64,000 bases of DNA from Dehalococcoidia bacterium (GCA_963555985.3 OY820591.1:1568001-1632000), one strand, 5' to 3'. Positions 21,339-41,518 are shown, numbered from the stretch's first letter. Made by a program: numbers and translations. Notes: a model not told the origin generated them from the letters alone.

Positions 21339-24300
21339 TCAGCCCGCTCCCAGCAGCACCGCCGCATAGGAGACGCCTTCGGTGTCCACCCCAATCAGCA
21401 GGACTTGGCCAGCCTCCAGACCGGACAAGATCTCGACGCTGGTGTCGTCGGATTCGCCCACCTCGACTTCGACTCGTTCCCAACCAGCCAGATTCTCGCT
21501 GGGCACAGCGACGAAGAACCCGCCCTCGATTTGACGAACAGCGGAGATCGCCACCAGCACCGCCTCGTCGCGGATCTCGGTGATGATCGTGACGCTGGCG
21601 GTCATCCCGGGCGCAGGTAGCGGCTGTTCCACGACGCCTGATTCTTCCGCTTCCGCGAGTGCTTGCTCATAGGCTAGGAACACCCCTCGGATCTGGGTCT
21701 TGAACTGCTCCGGAATCTCGAACTCGTCCGGCAGTACGACTCCTTCCGGCAGAGGATCGTCGAACACGAGGGCGCGAATCACGCTGAGCGTCTCGACGCC
21801 GGGAGGGATCGTGGCCTGAGCTTCGAACGCGGCGAATAGTTGTCTTGCCTGAGGCGTCTCAAACGGATTGGGAACGCCGCCGCTGGCTGCCCCTTCAGCG
21901 CCGATCGTGATGGCGTTCTCACCACCGATCGCAGCCAACTGATCGGCGGCCTCCGGGAGCTCCTCAGGTGTGAGGATCGAGGCGTCCACGTCGTACGTCA
22001 CCACTCCTTGCTCAATCTGCGGGACGCGCCCCGCCTCGGCCACTCGAATCGCGTATACGAAACCCTCAAGGGCGTCGAAGCTGGCGACACCGACTAGATC
22101 CGGTTCGAGCTCGAACCATTCCGCTTCCGTCACACTAAGTTCGATCACAAGCTGACCGCGCGTGCTGAGCACGAGCGCCGGGGTACTGGCTGAAACTCGG
22201 TCACCGAGCTCGATGTTGATTTCTTCAACAACGCCGTCGAACTGAGCGCGGATGACCAGATCATCAAGCGCACCCTCAGCTTCTTCGACAGTGAGCTCGG
22301 CCAGGCGGACATTCTGAGTCTGGCGGTCGATGGCGCTCGCGGTAGAACCGGCGAGAAGCTCGTCACGGCGCGTGACAGCTTCCTCCAGACTGGCGTACGC
22401 GCTGGCCAAGGAGGACTCGGCCTGTTTGATTTCCTCCTCGGTTGCAGGTTCGAGAAGCTCGCTCAAGCGAGCGCGCGTAGCGTCGACATTGGCCCGCGAC
22501 GCGGCCACGGTCTGCTCCGCTTGATAGCGATCTTCGATGTCCGGGTCGGCTTGCAGATCGTCAAGCCGCGCAGCCGCAGCGTCATAGTTCGCCTGCGCAG
22601 CGACAATCGCCTGTTCCGCCTGGAAGAGATCGTCCGCGTCCACATCACCGCGCAGGTCGTCAAGCCGCGCCTGGGCAGCCTCGAGGTTCGCGCTGGCCGC
22701 GGTGACGGCCTGCTCGGCCTGGAAGAGGTCGCTGATGTTGGCCGGCGTCAGCAAGTCGTCCAAGCGAGCCTGTGCGGACTCAAGGTTCGCTTCGGCCGCT
22801 TGTATAGTTTGCTCGGCTTGGTAGATGTCGGCCGCGTCCACATCGCTCCGCAGTTCGTCGAGCCGCGCTTGGGCAGCTTCGAGACTCGCGCTGGCCGCGG
22901 TGACGGCTTGTCTCGCCTGGAAGAAGTCGTGAGTAGTGGGGGGCGTCAACAGGTCGTTCAATCGCGCCCGCGCCGCTGCCAGATTCGCCTCTGCCGCCTC
23001 GACGGCCAGCCCAGCTTGGTAGACGTCATCGGCGTCCACATCGCTTTGCAGCTCATCCAGTCGCGCCTGGGCAGCTTCGAGATTCGCCTTCGAGGCAACG
23101 ACGGCTTGCTCCGCCTGGAAGTGGTCGTGAACAGTAGGGGGCGTCAACAGGTCGTTCCATCGCGCTCGTGCGGCTGCGACGTTTGCCTCTGCTGCCTCAA
23201 CGGCCTGTTGCGCCTGGTAGATGTCATTGTCATCGGCTGGTCGGAGCAGGTCAGCGAGCCGCGCTTGCGCGGCCTGGAGTGATTCGGTGGCGGATTCTTC
23301 GGCGTTGCGGGCACGTTCAAGAGCCGTATGTCGGTCAAGGAGCGCCTTCGCCAGTCGTTCAAGATTGGAGCCTCGCTCTTCACTCTCCTCTTCCAGATAC
23401 ACGAGTTCCTCGGCGGTCAGTGGGAGATCAGCGCGGCAAATCGAGGGCAAGACGGAAATTTCATCGCAGAAATCCTCATGCGCTCTGTCAATTTGATCGA
23501 GTGCAGTTTCCACATCGTTCTCAGCCGCGCTTAGATTTGTGCGAGCCGTGGGAAGTGCGGCGCGGGCCGAAGCCAGATCCGCCGCACTGGGCTCATCAAT
23601 CAGGTCTGCGAGAGATTGTTCCGTGCTTGAGAGTTGGCCGAGCGCACTCGCGACCGCTTGCTCGGCGCTGGCGAGCTCGGCGGCCGACGGGTCGCTGCTG
23701 AGATCGTCGAGCGCCTCTTCGGTCGTTGACAGTTGATTGCGGGCATTGGCGACCGCTTGCTCGGCGCTGGCGAGCTCGGCGGCAGTCGGTCCTGCACTCA
23801 GATCGGCGAGAGCTTGTCGCGCTGTTGAGAATTGGTTGCGCGCGTTAGCGACGGCCTGTTCCGCGCTGGCGATCTCAGCAGCCGACGGGCCGCTGCTCAG
23901 ATCCTCGAGTGCCTCCTCAGCCGCGGACAGTTGATTGCGGGCGTTCGCGACCGCTTGTTCGGCGCTGGCGAGCTCGGCGTCAGTGGGTCCGGCCCTCAGA
24001 TCAGTGAGTGCTTGTTGCGCTGTCGAGAGCTGATTGCGCGCACTCGCGATGGTTTGTTCGGCGCTGGCAATCTCGGCGGTAGTTGGACCGGTGGTCAAGT
24101 CGTCGAGCGCCTCTTCAGCCGCCGACAGTTGATTGCGGGCGTTGGCGACCGCTTGCTCAGCGCTGGCGAGGTCGGCGGCTGTTGCTCCGTCGGTGAGGTC
24201 ACTGCGGGCCTGTTCAGCGCTGGAAAGTTGGCTGCGGGCGTTGGCGACGGCTTGTTCGGCGCTGGCGAGCTCAGCGGCCGTAGCTCCCTCGGCAAGGTCG

Positions 24301-24902
24301 TTCAACGCCTCTGCGGCACCGGAGAGCTGGCTGCGGGCGTTGGCGACGGCCTGTTCGGCCTGGTGGACCTCGCTCTGGTCAGGCGGTTCCTGCAAGCGTT
24401 GCAGGGTGAGTTCGGCGCTCGCGACTTGAGCCTCGGCGGAGAGCACCGCTCGCTCCGCAGCGGCGATATCAGCGACTGCTGGATCGTCCTGCAGCTCTTC
24501 GAGTGCGATTTGGGCCAAACGCAACTGCAGTTGGGCGGTCTCGAGCCGGCGAAGCGCATCTGTGTCATCGAGCCGTGCCAGGGCGTCACCGACCTGCACT
24601 GTCTGTCCTACTTCGGCCTCAATCGAGCTGACCGTGCCGCCAACTGCAAAGGTGAGGTTTGCCGTATGCGCCGCCGCTGCGGAACCCGACAACTCGATCG
24701 TCGTGGTGAGCCGCCCCAGCGTGGCAACGGTGCGCTGAGGTTCGACGGCAACAACTTCCTCTTCGGGGCGCGTGAGAAGCCAAGCCACGACAGCGATGAC
24801 GGCGGCAATGACGAGCAGAGCGAGGACGATCCAGGGTCGCCGTGAGCGGCGCCGGCTGACCAGCGCATCGATCGCATCAAGATCCGTTGATTGGATGGTC
24901 AA
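21339..24902 (-). CDS. Membrane fusion protein (HlyD/MacA family) with a greatly expanded alpha-helical hairpin
   Basis: N-terminal TM; lipoyl half-motifs (GTVSSIEAEVGQTVQVGDALARLD and IRAQFDGVVEEINIELGDRV); C-terminal VEILSGLEAG; 33-aa internal repeats. Confidence 0.88.
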   Translation of the reverse strand: MTIQSTDLDAIDALVSRRRSRRPWIVLALLVIAAVIAVVAWLLTRPEEEVVAVEPQRTVATLGRLTTTIELSGSAAAAHTANLTFAVGGTVSSIEAEVGQTVQVGDALARLDDTDALRRLETAQLQLRLAQIALEELQDDPAVADIAAAERAVLSAEAQVASAELTLQRLQEPPDQSEVHQAEQAVANARSQLSGAAEALNDLAEGATAAELASAEQAVANARSQLSSAEQARSDLTDGATAADLASAEQAVANARNQLSAAEEALDDLTTGPTTAEIASAEQTIASARNQLSTAQQALTDLRAGPTDAELASAEQAVANARNQLSAAEEALEDLSSGPSAAEIASAEQAVANARNQFSTARQALADLSAGPTAAELASAEQAVANARNQLSTTEEALDDLSSDPSAAELASAEQAVASALGQLSSTEQSLADLIDEPSAADLASARAALPTARTNLSAAENDVETALDQIDRAHEDFCDEISVLPSICRADLPLTAEELVYLEEESEERGSNLERLAKALLDRHTALERARNAEESATESLQAAQARLADLLRPADDNDIYQAQQAVEAAEANVAAARARWNDLLTPPTVHDHFQAEQAVVASKANLEAAQARLDELQSDVDADDVYQAGLAVEAAEANLAAARARLNDLLTPPTTHDFFQARQAVTAASASLEAAQARLDELRSDVDAADIYQAEQTIQAAEANLESAQARLDDLLTPANISDLFQAEQAVTAASANLEAAQARLDDLRGDVDADDLFQAEQAIVAAQANYDAAAARLDDLQADPDIEDRYQAEQTVAASRANVDATRARLSELLEPATEEEIKQAESSLASAYASLEEAVTRRDELLAGSTASAIDRQTQNVRLAELTVEEAEGALDDLVIRAQFDGVVEEINIELGDRVSASTPALVLSTRGQLVIELSVTEAEWFELEPDLVGVASFDALEGFVYAIRVAEAGRVPQIEQGVVTYDVDASILTPEELPEAADQLAAIGGENAITIGAEGAASGGVPNPFETPQARQLFAAFEAQATIPPGVETLSVIRALVFDDPLPEGVVLPDEFEIPEQFKTQIRGVFLAYEQALAEAEESGVVEQPLPAPGMTASVTIITEIRDEAVLVAISAVRQIEGGFFVAVPSENLAGWERVEVEVGESDDTSVEILSGLEAGQVLLIGVDTEGVSYAAVLLGAG
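22330..24480 (-). repeat. Intragenic 99-bp (33-aa) tandem repeats in two arrays
   Basis: Units of type AELASAEQAVANARNQLSxAEEALxDL, followed by units of type DxxQAEQAVxAAxANLEAAQARLDxL. Confidence 0.85.
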
Positions 24903-38082: not shown

Positions 38083-38346
38083 GTGCAACTCAAGGTCACC
38101 CTCAAGGAAGAAGCGAGGGCACAACTGCGTGTGTTGACTCCGGTACCGAAACGCGAAGTGCGAAGCACGCTGCGGGAGATGGAAGACGACCCGTACGGGC
38201 TGGACACGATTCCGCTGCAGCCGCCTTTAGATGGACTGTACCGAGTCCGCGTGGGCGACTACCGCATCATCTTCGAGCCTGGGCCTGGGCATCGGCAGGT
38301 CACGGTCACGCGGATCGGTCACCGCGATTGGGTGTATGAGGACTGA
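38083..38346 (+). CDS. Type II toxin, RelE/ParE family
   Basis: GLYRVRVGDYRIIF...VTRIGHRDWVY. Confidence 0.88.
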   Translation: MQLKVTLKEEARAQLRVLTPVPKREVRSTLREMEDDPYGLDTIPLQPPLDGLYRVRVGDYRIIFEPGPGHRQVTVTRIGHRDWVYED

Positions 38347-38475
38347 GGTTGTTCAGCGAAGAATTTTTTCTGGGCCTTTGGATGGGGTGCTTCGGCGACG
38401 ATCTCCTGTGTTTTACGGGGTTTTGTGCGATTTGGGATGGTCAGGATTGGTTAGGTTTGGTTGGCCCTGTTCAGT
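38345..38475 (-). repeat. Dispersed intergenic element homologous to 938..1065
   Basis: Shared sequence blocks; contains a + strand GGN-NN periodic run at 38434-38463. Confidence 0.6.
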
Positions 38476-38511
38476 CGAGTTCAGTGTCGCTGAATCGTGG
38501 TCAAGTGTTGA

Positions 38512-38535
38512 GCGCGGCGGCCGAAACCGCCGCGC
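38512..38535 (-). terminator. GC-rich hairpin closing the pentamer array (3' end of the putative RNA, or a terminator)
   Basis: Minus strand GCGCGGCGG-TTTCGG-CCGCCGCGC: a 9-bp stem with a UUCG-type loop and no long U-tract. Confidence 0.65.
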
Positions 38536-38608
38536 CCGTCCTTGCCCAACCCCGCCCTACCCTGCCGTGCCTGGCCACGCCATACCCAGCCGAGCCAAGC
38601 CTTGCCCT
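38534..38608 (-). ncRNA. Putative guide-like RNA: 15 phased NN-GGY pentamers
   Basis: AG GGC AA GGC TT GGC TC GGC TG GGT AT GGC GT GGC CA GGC AC GGC AG GGT AG GGC GG GGT TG GGC AA GGA CG GGC. It starts 7 nt after the stop codon of the RAMP-like gene. The repeat is directly visible; RNA status is inferred. Confidence 0.7.
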
Positions 38609-38615
38609 GAGATTG

Positions 38616-39215
38616 TCAGCTTATCTCATCGACCGCCAACACCTCAAACCTGCCGTAATGGCCACTCTTCTCGGGCCGCCAGTCGCCGAGTCCGATCCTG
38701 CGCGAGCCGATGTCCAGCCACGTTTCCAGTTGTTCCTGGTCGACGAGTTCATCATCGACCTCAATACGAAAGCGCGCTTCCCACTCTTCGAACATGGCGC
38801 GCGTGCGCAGGACGCGGTTGCGCTGCACGACAACTCCAGTGGTGAACTGCGCCTTCTTGCCGAGCTGCTCGACCGTCGTGCCGTAACGCTCGCGGTCGTA
38901 TTCGAACTTGGCGTCGCCGAGCACGATCAGGCCCTCGCGTACCTGCGGACCCTGCGTGAGTTTGCGAGCGGAGGTTTCGATCATAGATCGGAACGCCGTT
39001 CTCGGGATTGTCGGCGCTCCGCCCGCGTCGAGCCAAAGAGAGATTTGGCACTCGAGCTCGCGGAGTCGTTCTTCGTCGCTGGCGGTCCTGTTGGATCCCT
39101 TCTTGCGGGTGATTTCCGCCTTCTCGAGATTAGCAGGGCTGCGGGTGTCGAGTCCGGCCGCGCCGTTGTGCATGATGATCGGGCTGATGCCTCGGATGTG
39201 GATGTCGTACTCCAT
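38616..39215 (-). CDS. Stand-alone RAMP/Cas7-like RNA-binding protein (199 aa)
   Basis: AGGAAGGA RBS; N-terminal strand IHIRGISPIIMH; PTIPRTAFRSMI (compare RAMP P.IP.S.lKG.lR); C-terminal Gly-rich loop GLGDWRPEKSGHYGRFEV. Confidence 0.75.
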   Translation of the reverse strand: MEYDIHIRGISPIIMHNGAAGLDTRSPANLEKAEITRKKGSNRTASDEERLRELECQISLWLDAGGAPTIPRTAFRSMIETSARKLTQGPQVREGLIVLGDAKFEYDRERYGTTVEQLGKKAQFTTGVVVQRNRVLRTRAMFEEWEARFRIEVDDELVDQEQLETWLDIGSRRIGLGDWRPEKSGHYGRFEVLAVDEIS

Positions 39216-39499
39216 GCCTGTCCGATTCCTTCCTCTACGGCTGCCAGGAGCGTGTAGATGTCGCCGCCGTTTCGGGTGAAGCGGCGGAGCGTGGTCGCAA
39301 TCTTGTGGCAAGGCCGGCAGAGCGCGGTGATGTGGTCGGCGCTGACGTTGCACTCGCAGGCGTCGGGTAGGTAGACGGCGAGCCAGTGGTGGCCTTCCTC
39401 AGCGGGGCGCTGTCCGCAGAACTGACAGACGCCGTTGGAGCGCTCGCGAGCGTCCTCTTTCGCCTTGCGGGTGTTGGGTCCGTCGGTGTTGTTGCACAT
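38981..39499 (-). CDS. HNH-like zinc-binding endonuclease; reading frame runs on into the downstream gene
   Basis: CQFC...GHH...HITALCRPCH pattern in the first ~95 aa; the tail overlaps 38616..39215 in another frame. Confidence 0.65.
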   Translation of the reverse strand: MCNNTDGPNTRKAKEDARERSNGVCQFCGQRPAEEGHHWLAVYLPDACECNVSADHITALCRPCHKIATTLRRFTRNGGDIYTLLAAVEEGIGQAWSTTSTSEASARSSCTTARPDSTPAALLISRRRKSPARRDPTGPPATKNDSASSSAKSLFGSTRAERRQSRERRSDL

Positions 39500-39572
39500 C
39501 GGTGGTTCTTTCGACCTTATGAGCGATGTTAGCTGGGATTGGTCGTGGAGACAAGGGTGGACTCTTTGAATT

Positions 39573-39702
39573 CCCTCTCCCCCTGCGAGGGGAGACACAG
39601 AGGGGGGCGATCATCGCGTCGAGCAGATAGGTGACTCAGTGCGCAGCGCGGCGTTCTCACCCCCTCTGTCACTTCGTGACATCTCCCCCTTGAGGGGGAG
39701 AT
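39573..39702. repeat. ~130-bp palindromic repeat, copy A
   Basis: CTCCCCC-n-GGGGAG hairpins at both ends, a CAGAGGGGG/CCCCCTCTG stem and a GTCAC-TTC-GTGAC hairpin. Confidence 0.88.
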
Positions 39703-39717
39703 CGGGACGGCTCGGTT

Positions 39718-39847
39718 CCCTCTCCCCCCGCAGGGGGGAGATACAGAGGGGGGCGATCGTGGCGTCGAGCAGACAGGTGATTCGGTGAGTTGCGCGACGT
39801 CTCACCCCCTCTGTCACTTTGTGACATCTCCCCCTCGAGGGGGAGAT
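39718..39847. repeat. ~130-bp palindromic repeat, copy B
   Basis: Direct repeat of copy A with substitutions. Confidence 0.88.
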
Positions 39848-40221
39848 TGGCTTTGCTCATGTTGTAGCTGGTTGAGGGTGTTGAGGATGGTGTCCAGCAC
39901 CGCGTCGGTCTCTGTGAGGGCTGTGTGGTTGTCGAAGCGCAGGACTTTGAAGCCTTGGGAGCGCAGATAGGCATCTCGACGCTGGTCGTAGGATTTGCGC
40001 TTGGCGTGCTGATCGCCGTCGAGTTCGACGACGAGGCGCGGGCTCAGGCAAGCGAAGTCGGCGATGTATGGGCCGATTGGGCGCTGACGGCGAAATCGGT
40101 AGCCTGCGAGTTGGCTTTGGCGGAGGCGCGACCAGAGCCGCTGCTCAGCGTCGGTGGCGTCCGTTCGCAACCTTCGGGCGAAGTGAGTGGTCTTGGGATG
40201 CTGTCGGAGTCTTTTGCTCAA
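39814..40221 (-). CDS. DUF559 / Vsr-like (PD-(D/E)xK) endonuclease domain protein
   Basis: Motifs ARRLRTDATDAEQRLWSRLR, FRRQRPIGPYIADFAC, LVVELDGDQH and RDAYLRSQGFKVLRFDN; TTG start after AAGGA. Confidence 0.9.
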   Translation of the reverse strand: MSKRLRQHPKTTHFARRLRTDATDAEQRLWSRLRQSQLAGYRFRRQRPIGPYIADFACLSPRLVVELDGDQHAKRKSYDQRRDAYLRSQGFKVLRFDNHTALTETDAVLDTILNTLNQLQHEQSQSPPRGGDVTK

Positions 40222-40239: not shown

Positions 40240-40367
40240 CTCTCCCCCCGCAGGGGGGAGATACAGAGGGGGGCGATCGTCGCGCTGAGCAGATAGGTGA
40301 CTCAGTGCGCGGCGCGGGGTTTCACCCCCTCTGTCACTTCGTGACATCTCCCCCTCAAGGGGGGGAT
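40240..40367. repeat. ~130-bp palindromic repeat, copy C
   Basis: Direct repeat of A and B on the other side of the DUF559 gene. Confidence 0.88.
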
Positions 40368-41518
40368 CAGGCCCCCACCGCAACCTTCACGTTCGCCGGC
40401 AACCTCGACGTGAACACCTCCACTGCCTCCCTGACCATCTCCTCCAACACTTCCGCCGCCGGACGCAGCTCGTGCAGCAATCCTGAGATCTGGCCCGCCG
40501 CGTTCATCAACAGGTCTTCCCGCTCGCCTTGCTTGGCAGCCTCTGCGATATCCGCAATGAGCAAACCTTGGAGACCCATCGGCAATGCTTGCGTGCCGGA
40601 GCCTTCCCATGCTTCGATGAGTTCGTTGGTGATGTTGCGCATGGTCTTGCCGGAGTACAGCCGCGTCACCCGCGTGTCTTCGTCGTTGGCGGCGAGGATG
40701 CGGCGCTTGCGGAACTCGTCGAGATTGGCCTCTTGGGTGGGGATGAAGACGGTGCCGCACCAGACGCCCACACAGCCCATCGCCAACGCAGCCGCTAATC
40801 CCCGACCGTCGCCGATGCCTCCGGCGGCGATCACCGGCTTGGGGCTGACCGCATCGAGCACCTGCGGGAGCAGGGCCATCGTGCCGATCCGGCCGGTGTG
40901 ACCGCCGGCCTCGTGACCCTGCGCGACCACGATGTCGGCGTTGCCGTCGGAGACGCGGCGGGCGTTCTTGACGTTGCCCACGAGTGAGATCACCTTGCCG
41001 CCCGCTTCGTGCACTTGATCGACGAACGGGGCAGGATTGCCCAAACCGGTCGCGAGTACGGGCACTCTCATGCCGGTGATCGTGTCCACCTGATCCTGGG
41101 GAGTGAAGCGGGGCACGCGCACATCGGCGCGCGGCGCCTGGACATCGGGCAGTTCGAGGTTGACGCGAATCTCGCCGATCAAGTCCTTGTGCTCTTCGGG
41201 GAGTAAGTCGCGCGGGTCTTTGGGGCGCTGGCGTCCACTCGGGCGGCTGGCGACGTTGGAGGGCACGAGAATGTCGACACCGAAGGGTCGATCGGTGAGG
41301 TCCTGGATGCGCTTGATCTGCGCTTCGAGACGGTCGGGCGGGAATCCGGCAGCGCCGAGCACGCCGAGTCCGCCCGCGTTCGAGATCGCCGCGACCAGCT
41401 CGGGCCCGGCGACGCCGCCCTGTCCGCCGCCCACGGTCGGCCCCATCCCGGCCAGACAGATCGGGTACTCGATGTCAAGCAGGTCGCAGAGTTCGGTGTG
41501 GAGGACGGGGCGGGTCAT
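40367..41518 (-). CDS. Nitronate monooxygenase / FabK-like flavoenzyme
   Basis: Motifs AISNAGGLG, QGHEAGGH and VIAAGGIGDGRG. Confidence 0.9.
   Translation of the reverse strand: MTRPVLHTELCDLLDIEYPICLAGMGPTVGGGQGGVAGPELVAAISNAGGLGVLGAAGFPPDRLEAQIKRIQDLTDRPFGVDILVPSNVASRPSGRQRPKDPRDLLPEEHKDLIGEIRVNLELPDVQAPRADVRVPRFTPQDQVDTITGMRVPVLATGLGNPAPFVDQVHEAGGKVISLVGNVKNARRVSDGNADIVVAQGHEAGGHTGRIGTMALLPQVLDAVSPKPVIAAGGIGDGRGLAAALAMGCVGVWCGTVFIPTQEANLDEFRKRRILAANDEDTRVTRLYSGKTMRNITNELIEAWEGSGTQALPMGLQGLLIADIAEAAKQGEREDLLMNAAGQISGLLHELRPAAEVLEEMVREAVEVFTSRLPANVKVAVGA

Follow-up and report, generated by a model that had tools for sequence, protein, structure and literature searches.

What is encoded by a compact unit of about 1 kb on the minus strand of a Dehalococcoidia bacterium chromosome, in which two open reading frames are followed by a run of phased GG-containing pentamers? 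The unit lies in a stretch of 64,000 nucleotides (GCA_963555985.3 OY820591.1:1568001-1632000), here called the window, and positions are counted from its first letter. Direct reading of the sequence gives an HNH-like open reading frame (ORF), an ORF of 199 amino acids (aa), a run of 16 xNNGG pentamers in phase and, at its end, a GC hairpin whose loop is UUCG, and this bears out the layout given in a preliminary description of the same DNA. That description had also pointed to a resemblance to the VIPR (Viral Interference Programmable Repeat) systems. The resemblance is real, as the text of the VIPR preprints sets out the same logic, i.e. Vipr protomers hold a constant GGY and present two variable bases, NN. 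The locus is very probably a complete minimal VIPR system on a bacterial chromosome, with a vap gene (HNH), a vipr gene and a single guide RNA (vrRNA) in one operon. The analysis establishes the homology and fold of the Vipr protein, its GGY-reading residues, the array with its 3′ hairpin, the conservation of the cassette with differing guides and an intact HNH active-site motif.

VIPR systems are described in three preprints of 2026. According to the text of the founding one (10.64898/2026.04.26.720920), a system consists of the Vipr protein, an accessory vap gene and vrRNAs of ~100 nucleotides (nt) that have 9–16 YNNGG repeats and a structured 3′ tail, and double-stranded DNA (dsDNA) is recognized by a 1-nt skip rule, NN-x-NN-x. 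The same text distinguishes seven types and places 25.5% of the loci in prokaryotic chromosomes. Types III–V have predicted nucleases or helicases, the nuclease-encoding types are found in defence islands, and the legend of fig. S21 lists an HNH domain among the Vap proteins (10.64898/2026.04.26.720920). The nuclease-coupled chromosomal branch is supported there by bioinformatics and small-RNA sequencing (sRNA-seq), and the binding, repression and phage assays are on type II (10.64898/2026.04.26.720920). The kind of system is therefore already described, including chromosomal nuclease-linked types, and the window locus adds a further member; the earlier view that a chromosomal copy coupled to an HNH gene would be notable in any case is not supported in the light of that preprint. 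The locus is most likely of the preprint's type III, as judged from its text and not from a position in the Vipr phylogeny.

The vipr gene (38616–39215, minus strand) has its ATG at 39215 and its TGA stop at 38618–38616, and encodes a 199-aa Cas7-like RAMP protein which is predicted to polymerize along the guide RNA. It is present as a single copy in the genome. A phmmer search of all PDB sequences aligns residues 5–193 with residues 6–188 of chain 36pp_D, the "SUSP1 Vipr protein" (E-value = 5.1e-9), and the two proteins are ~25% identical. A profile of the 22-member clade of the window protein matches 36pp_D at 7.7e-17, whereas all other PDB proteins have E-values of 0.1 or more. The protein also matches phrog_4652, an unnamed phage family, at 8e-30 (PHROGs); Pfam, NCBIfam and PADLOC have no model that matches it. 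The AlphaFold2 (AF2) model has a pLDDT of 87.8 and a pTM of 0.82. All listed top matches of this model in Foldseek are Cas7-family RAMPs (Csm3, Cmr4, Csf2 and type VII Cas7), with E-values of 1.8e-5 to 8e-4 and a TM of ~0.5; the library reached to April 2026, and no Vipr entry showed among the matches. A RAMP fold of the Cas7 type had been proposed for the 199-aa protein, and this structural check, in which the best matches are Csm3/Cas7, agrees with it.

The residues that read the guide are also recognizable. D178-W179-R180 of the window protein align to D177/W178/R179 of SUSP1 Vipr, R139 aligns to the thumb residue R138, and H16 of the strand aligns to H17. The cryo-EM work on SUSP1, in the text of its preprint, has H17, D177, R138, W178 and R179 holding G1, G2 and Y3 of the GGY (10.64898/2026.04.26.720927). 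D178, W179, R180 and R139 are invariant among the 22 clade members. The G-loop of the window protein is GLGDWRPEKSGHYGRF, and G175, L176, G177, D178, W179, R180 and P181 are all invariant in the clade.

Comparison with the type II system of Escherichia phage SUSP1 (PDB 36pp), as far as the preprints describe it, shows homology over the full length of Vipr, the same D-W-R of the G-loop, the thumb R and the β-strand H. In both systems a structured segment follows the YNNGG repeats, in the window as a candidate 3′ tail, and a common mechanism is expected, in which each repeat binds one protomer, recognition skips 1 nt and an R-loop triplex forms. SUSP1 has a DNA-binding Vap1, whereas an HNH nuclease gene is upstream of vipr in the window; the SUSP1 tail is a pseudoknot and that of the window is a simple GC hairpin; and the SUSP1 system is phage-borne with four guides in intergenic regions, whereas the window system is chromosomal with one guide abutting the vipr stop codon.

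The RRM core, the G-loop, the thumb fold and the periodic flipping of bases along a guide are held in common with the Cas7 backbone (Csm3/Cmr4) of class 1 CRISPR systems. A class 1 CRISPR-Cas system (type III or type I) was considered for the locus and rejected. Cas1 (PF01867) has no match in the genome, which is 96% complete, in a search where the control genomes scored; Tandem Repeats Finder detects no CRISPR-like array in the window, and Vipr is encoded by one gene only. The lack of cas1 and of a CRISPR array had been stated for the window, and for cas1 it extends to the genome as assembled. The window is also without other cas genes. In addition, class 1 guides have a contiguous spacer read with a 6-nt period, whereas the period here is 5 nt with two informative bases.

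The predicted vrRNA guide tract is at 38540–38609 (minus strand) and has 14 YNNGG units, the last of which is CAAGG followed by A. Six nucleotides, CAATCT, separate the vipr stop codon from the array, which extends from 38609 to 38530 and consists of 16 pentamers that keep a single phase and have GG as their fourth and fifth bases. The NN of the 16 units are, in order, AG AA TT TC TG AT GT CA AC AG AG GG TG AA CG GC. The base 3′ of each GG is a pyrimidine, with the exception of the A after unit 14. The array had been described in the NNGGY register as 15 pentamers that begin 7 nt after the stop codon. This count and spacing are correct in that register, but the GGY is obeyed in 14 of the 15 units, as unit 14 reads GGA.

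The array is not a chance run. Its 16-unit length is unique in the 3.33-Mb genome, where the next longest are three runs of 7 units; by chance, 3.6e-11 runs of 16 units would be expected. These figures also bear on the proposal that the pentamers are only a G-rich 3′ untranslated region or terminator whose likeness to a guide is coincidental. This would agree with the fact that no RNA run with the locus was found, and the hairpin could be an ordinary terminator common to the operon and the convergent ParE gene. However, 44 of 48 related loci across phyla have an array together with the Vipr gene, and arrays are found almost nowhere else within the 8.5-kb loci. The proposal is effectively refuted by this co-occurrence and can hardly be entertained; the pentamers are read here as a guide.

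The candidate 3′ tail of the vrRNA, which is likely to be the terminator of the operon, is at 38510–38539 (minus strand). It is a GC-rich hairpin of 12 base pairs with a UUCG loop and has units 15–16 in its 5′ arm. The core of nine G-C pairs (GCGCGGCGG / CCGCCGCGC, 38512–38535) is as previously described; RNAfold extends it to 12 pairs at 38510–38537, with two G.U pairs and a U.G-closed UUCG loop. RNAfold on 133 nt gives −63.6 kcal/mol (z −4.1), and 0 of 200 shuffled sequences are as stable. An outer helix round the hairpin is also seen in the RNAfold output, where the last guide units GGUUGGGCAAGGA pair with UCAACACUUGACC just 3′ of the hairpin (38490–38560, minus strand). L022 and some other related loci display a downstream stretch complementary to their own last units, and the outer helix may represent an extended tail structure.

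The vrRNAs of relatives typically end in ...GGC(A/G)(A/G)GGA, after which there is either a GC hairpin or a short linker (ACTTC, AAATC or ACATC) that leads to a further vrRNA. The last unit of the window guide, CAAGG+A, fits this conserved end. Since these endings are conserved, the guide is probably units 1–13 or 1–14, as judged from the relatives' sequences, and units 15–16 are probably part of the hairpin. Half of the terminal arrays of relatives (16 of 32) lead, when judged strictly, into a hairpin of at least 6 base pairs without interruption, and the sequences of these hairpins differ. The window hairpin may be a plain terminator. The array and hairpin together are ~100 nt, which fits the repeat number and vrRNA length in the text of the founding preprint. 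Rfam has no match for the array.

The array of many relatives starts 0–30 nt 3′ of the vipr stop codon, and a scan of both strands of 38200–39900 for sigma-70-like promoters gives no match. The array would therefore be co-transcribed with the operon. With its start 6 nt after the stop codon and no separate promoter seen, the operon mRNA probably yields the guide from its 3′ end, either by cleavage or because this end is protected. Four DNA-contig runs have co-occurring vipr variants, and also contigs in which the array part differs (the joints skip 65–93 nt within 38546–38640); these are short metagenome contigs and are given no weight.

A plus-strand run of six phased xNNGG pentamers (TTTGG GATGG TCAGG ATTGG TTAGG TTTGG) is found at 38431–38460, about 50 nt from the hairpin. 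The genome has only 10 six-unit runs, and so the closeness of this one to the hairpin is unlikely by chance (roughly 1e-3). Relatives give no support for a second vrRNA here, as none of them has a convergent array at this place, and the run does not keep the GGY motif throughout. Arrays on the opposite strand do occur in three relatives (L040, L042 and L044), but these are upstream of the HNH gene.

A scan of one genome per species of the GTDB gives 48 related loci at 50–76% identity. They are in metagenome-assembled genomes (MAGs) labelled Dehalococcoidia/Chloroflexota, Alphaproteobacteria, Binatia, Thermodesulfobacteriota, Limisphaerales, Vicinamibacterales and others; so wide a spread of one clade over the phylum labels of MAGs suggests that the cassette is transferred horizontally. 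Arrays of at least six phased units, one or more per locus, are found beside the operon in 44 of the 48 (downstream of vipr on the same strand in 36, upstream only in 8). The remaining loci are L028, which has 5 units, L035, L045 and L049. Such arrays are almost never found elsewhere within the 8.5-kb loci. The NN vary from locus to locus, and many loci have 2–6 or more vrRNAs. The check proposed at the outset, that homologues should be followed by pentamer arrays with differing NN, is thus borne out by these 44 loci.

The HNH gene is directly upstream of vipr in 34 of the 48 loci. In three genomes of the same family (L004, L005 and L009) the locus is at the same chromosomal position as in the window, where the cassette adjoins the same nitronate-monooxygenase gene (89% identical). 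Their Vipr proteins are 71–74% and their HNH proteins 75–78% identical to those of the window, and the guides are entirely different. The gene is patchy, being present in 2 of 24 genomes of the same family and in none of the 16 genomes examined that belong to the class but not to this family.

Relatives in viruses are distant. Isolate phages show 158 records, all of less than 34% identity and all annotated "hypothetical" (Gordonia, Mycobacterium, Felixounavirus-like coliphages and others), and IMG/VR has two Vipr loci at 41% identity. The clade is therefore essentially chromosomal. One of the phage relatives, gp41 of Gordonia phage Trine (L071 1501–2076), follows DNA polymerase I and has no HNH gene upstream.

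This distribution also has to be weighed against a different explanation, that the cassette is a guide-directed selfish element similar to the OMEGA systems (IscB/TnpB), which cuts empty sites and homes into them and has no function in host defence. The cassette is compact and self-contained, and the patchy presence among close relatives and the 50–76% identity in MAGs labelled as several phyla are both as would be seen for such an element. No other neighbour gene is recurrent; in a crude clustering of ORFs the next cluster is common to only 6 of 49 loci. However, the window guide has no match in its own flanks, and scans that allowed up to 3 mismatches found no site for it in 65 genomes of the order (13 units) or in 401 of the class (15 units). 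Furthermore, guides differ between loci at the same chromosomal position, and no transposase or integrase adjoins the cassette. A selfish element is on these grounds highly unlikely.

The vap-like gene (38981–39499, minus strand) starts with the ATG at 39499 and encodes 172 aa. Residues 1 to ~97 form an HNH nuclease domain and residues ~95–172 a basic tail. The ORF matches phrog_144 at 4e-7 (PHROGs), and the HNH clade profile matches the HNH of ZRANB3 at 9e-5, with IscB and Cas5-HNH weaker. The CxxC...HH...CxxCH motif is kept in the HNH proteins of the clade, where C25, C28, G29, H37, H38, Y43, C61, R72 and R73 are invariant and C64 and H65 are present in at least 90% of the rows. The AF2 model has a pLDDT above 90 at residues ~10–100, and the tail is of low confidence. 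Top Foldseek matches of the model are the Cas5-HNH Cascade and the HNH protein of phage GVE2. The HNH domain is like that of the Cas5-HNH Cascade, a type I-E variant (8zp7, 8yha), with an rmsd of ~2.1 Å over 66 columns, and both would combine a RAMP filament with an HNH cutter, as predicted for the window; the HNH domain is fused to Cas5 in the Cascade, whereas it is a separate protein here. The tail of 78 aa is rich in S/R/A/T/P and has a net charge of +9. As modelled it is probably disordered, and it may tether the nuclease to the filament or to DNA.

The HNH ORF had been described as preceding the 199-aa ORF. This needs correction: the HNH ORF has no stop codon before vipr and continues for 78 further codons in the vipr +1 frame, up to a TGA at 38983–38981. 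The two genes overlap by 235 nt (38981–39215, minus strand), and this stretch is read twice, as vipr codons 1–78 (frame 0) and as the vap tail (frame +1). All 34 relatives that have the HNH gene likewise show a frame that is open past the vipr start, over 234–258 nt in 33 and over 336 nt in one. In every HNH-bearing locus the vipr +1 frame is free of stops as far as codon 78, and this is so even in loci with a vipr GC content of 44% and 53%. Stop codons in the +1 frame appear at codons 78–86 (112 in L044) and often beyond, and the +2 frame has stops throughout. The five full-length loci that lack the HNH gene have earlier +1 stops, at codons 75, 22, 1, 5 and 1.

The frame is open more often than synonymous shuffling predicts. 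When synonymous codons are shuffled within each gene, it stays open to codon 78 in 9.0 of 33 loci on expectation, whereas in the real sequences it does so in all 33 (the set includes the window; L037 and L049, which have a truncated vipr, were left out). The summed log10 probability of the open frames is −24.7 with the loci taken as independent, a value that is overstated because the loci are related. Third-position entropy at conserved-aa columns is 0.94 bits for codons 2–77 (38 columns) and 1.37 bits for codons 88–195 (57 columns), with a Mann-Whitney p of 2e-4. This contrast is supportive and not decisive, because the amino-acid make-up of the two regions differs. It seems likely, by a modest measure, that in the chromosomal clade the HNH vap gene is overprinted on vipr, i.e. 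that it encodes ~172 aa of which the last ~78–86 residues are the +1 frame of the first 78–86 vipr codons, with both the openness of the frame and its sequence under selection. Fusion of HNH to Vipr by a −1 frameshift is a possible but less favoured way to account for the overlap. It leaves the 78-codon openness of the +1 frame unexplained, and the fused protein would be without the N-terminal strand of Vipr.

Database searches show how the overlap affects annotation. The 172-aa Vap finds only two proteins in a database of 5.8 billion proteins; both have the tail, and one ends at a contig end. Vipr finds 1144 relatives in the same database at E-values of 1e-3 or less, almost all of them unnamed metagenome proteins. 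The nuclease is almost absent from protein databases, evidently because gene callers forbid same-strand overlaps of this kind. The text of the founding preprint (10.64898/2026.04.26.720920) does not mention the gene overlap, which its figures or supplements may show. A full-text literature search for vrRNA together with HNH returned only the founding preprint, and one for vrRNA together with overlapping genes returned nothing.

By analogy with the SUSP1 and P. fulva work, as described in the preprint texts, each of the ~14 YNNGG units would be bound by one Vipr protomer. The protomers would sequester the GGY and present the NN, and the filament would pair with dsDNA, reading NN-x-NN-x by the 1-nt skip rule and forming an R-loop triplex. 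The HNH protein may then cut the bound DNA. If so, the system would destroy foreign DNA and not only silence it.

Guide searches that follow the 1-nt skip rule have found no target. The best site in the window's own genome has 20 of 30 NN positions, compared with 19–22 for 30 controls with shuffled units, and so there is no self-target; in this the locus is like the VIPR systems in the preprint text. Exact 10-unit patterns (units 1–10, 6–15 and 4–13) give 0 matches each in IMG/VR. An 8-unit pattern (units 4–11) gives 17 matches there, of which the best has 21 of 30, the level of chance. Units 3–12 and 4–13 give 0 matches in JGI metagenomes. With up to 3 mismatches, 15 units give 0 matches in 401 genomes of the class, at low sensitivity as units 14–15 were later judged to be tail, and 13 units give 0 matches in 65 genomes of the order. 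These blank scans are weak evidence because exact-match scans miss scattered mismatches.

The guides of relatives behave similarly. Single-vrRNA guides of L041, L013 and L025 have 0 exact 10-unit matches in IMG/VR. Against the window's genome (3.3 Mb, 65% GC), 5 of 115 of the relatives' 13-unit guides reach at least 80% of the NN positions, and 5 of 115 shuffled-unit controls do so as well. When 297 guide windows of relatives are compared with all loci and with the window, real guides and controls do not differ in their distribution of scores. Shuffled guides thus reach the published 80% threshold as often as real ones, and target calls in large databases need shuffled controls.

The same results could be taken to mean that the locus is a domesticated or decaying remnant, with intact genes and a guide that has no living target, or that it silences a gene of the host or of a resident element without cleavage. 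There is only one vrRNA in the window, compared with 2–6 or more in most relatives, and no search made has given a target. However, both ORFs are intact with all clade-invariant residues, the array is perfectly phased, and there is no self-match above the shuffled controls. A single vrRNA is found as well in L013, L025 and L041, and the preprint text has single-vrRNA systems confirmed by sRNA-seq. A remnant or silencing role is quite unlikely, if slightly less so than a selfish element.

Several points weigh against an active VIPR system. H16, which aligns to a GGY-holding residue of SUSP1, is variable in the clade (H, N or R). One GGY is GGA (unit 14), and the locus has one guide only. The cassette is not in a large defence island but in a 2-kb islet whose neighbours are the ParE pair, a DUF559 gene and metabolic genes. 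As no RNA run with the locus was found, transcription of the array and its binding by Vipr are predicted; and as no target was found in the viral, metagenome and related-genome searches, an antiviral role is something that we infer. Compared with the nuclease-Vap VIPR systems (types III–V) of the preprint text, the window locus has in common a Vipr gene with a predicted-nuclease vap gene, a GGY/NN vrRNA, a location in a prokaryotic chromosome and the single-vrRNA arrangement. It differs from them, as they are presented in that text, in the 235-nt vap/vipr overlap, in the small islet with the ParE pair and DUF559, and in the lack of a viral target for the guide.

The surroundings of the locus are not prophage. 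Neighbouring genes encode an FtsX permease, a hydrolase, two CoA-transferases, a ParE-type toxin pair, a DUF559 protein, a monooxygenase, a ferredoxin, a LysR regulator and an AP endonuclease, and no transposase or integrase is beside the cassette. The ParE-family toxin gene (38083–38346, plus strand; Pfam PF05016, 4.6e-6, 27.6 bits with a cut-off of 23) is convergent on the VIPR hairpin and lies outside the VIPR unit. In L014 and L019 an ORF about 250 nt 3′ of the vrRNA starts with a sequence (...WTVAEAKARLSEVLR...) that we take to be typical of a Phd/YefM-type antitoxin. The VIPR cassette of other genomes may therefore also have a toxin-antitoxin module as its neighbour, like the ParE pair here.

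Three copies of a 145-nt repeat flank DUF559 (39571–39850 and 40240–40371), between the monooxygenase gene and the VIPR operon. The 52–57-nt core of the repeat gives ~100 BLAST high-scoring pairs genome-wide, and the repeat is thus REP- or MITE-like. Its summed depth in the metagenome contigs is very high and reaches 3562. L004, L005 and L009 have neither the 145-nt repeats nor DUF559 at this site. A tandem repeat at 22553–24363 (period 99/198 nt, 3–7 copies, 65–78% matches) is probably within a coding region and is unrelated to the VIPR locus.

The locus is a clean minimal example, of ~1 kb overall, of the nuclease-coupled chromosomal branch of VIPR, and the feature that merits the attention of specialists is the conserved overlap by which the HNH gene would be overprinted on vipr. 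As the HNH partner with its long overlap is almost never annotated, surveys based on annotation under-count nuclease-bearing VIPR loci, and constructs made from the annotated genes alone will truncate the nuclease. If the overprinting is true, loci of this clade may have passed as vap-less or been mis-typed. The basic disordered tail would then couple the amount or the position of the nuclease to the Vipr filament, and the overlap would enforce co-inheritance and co-translation of the cutter and the binder.

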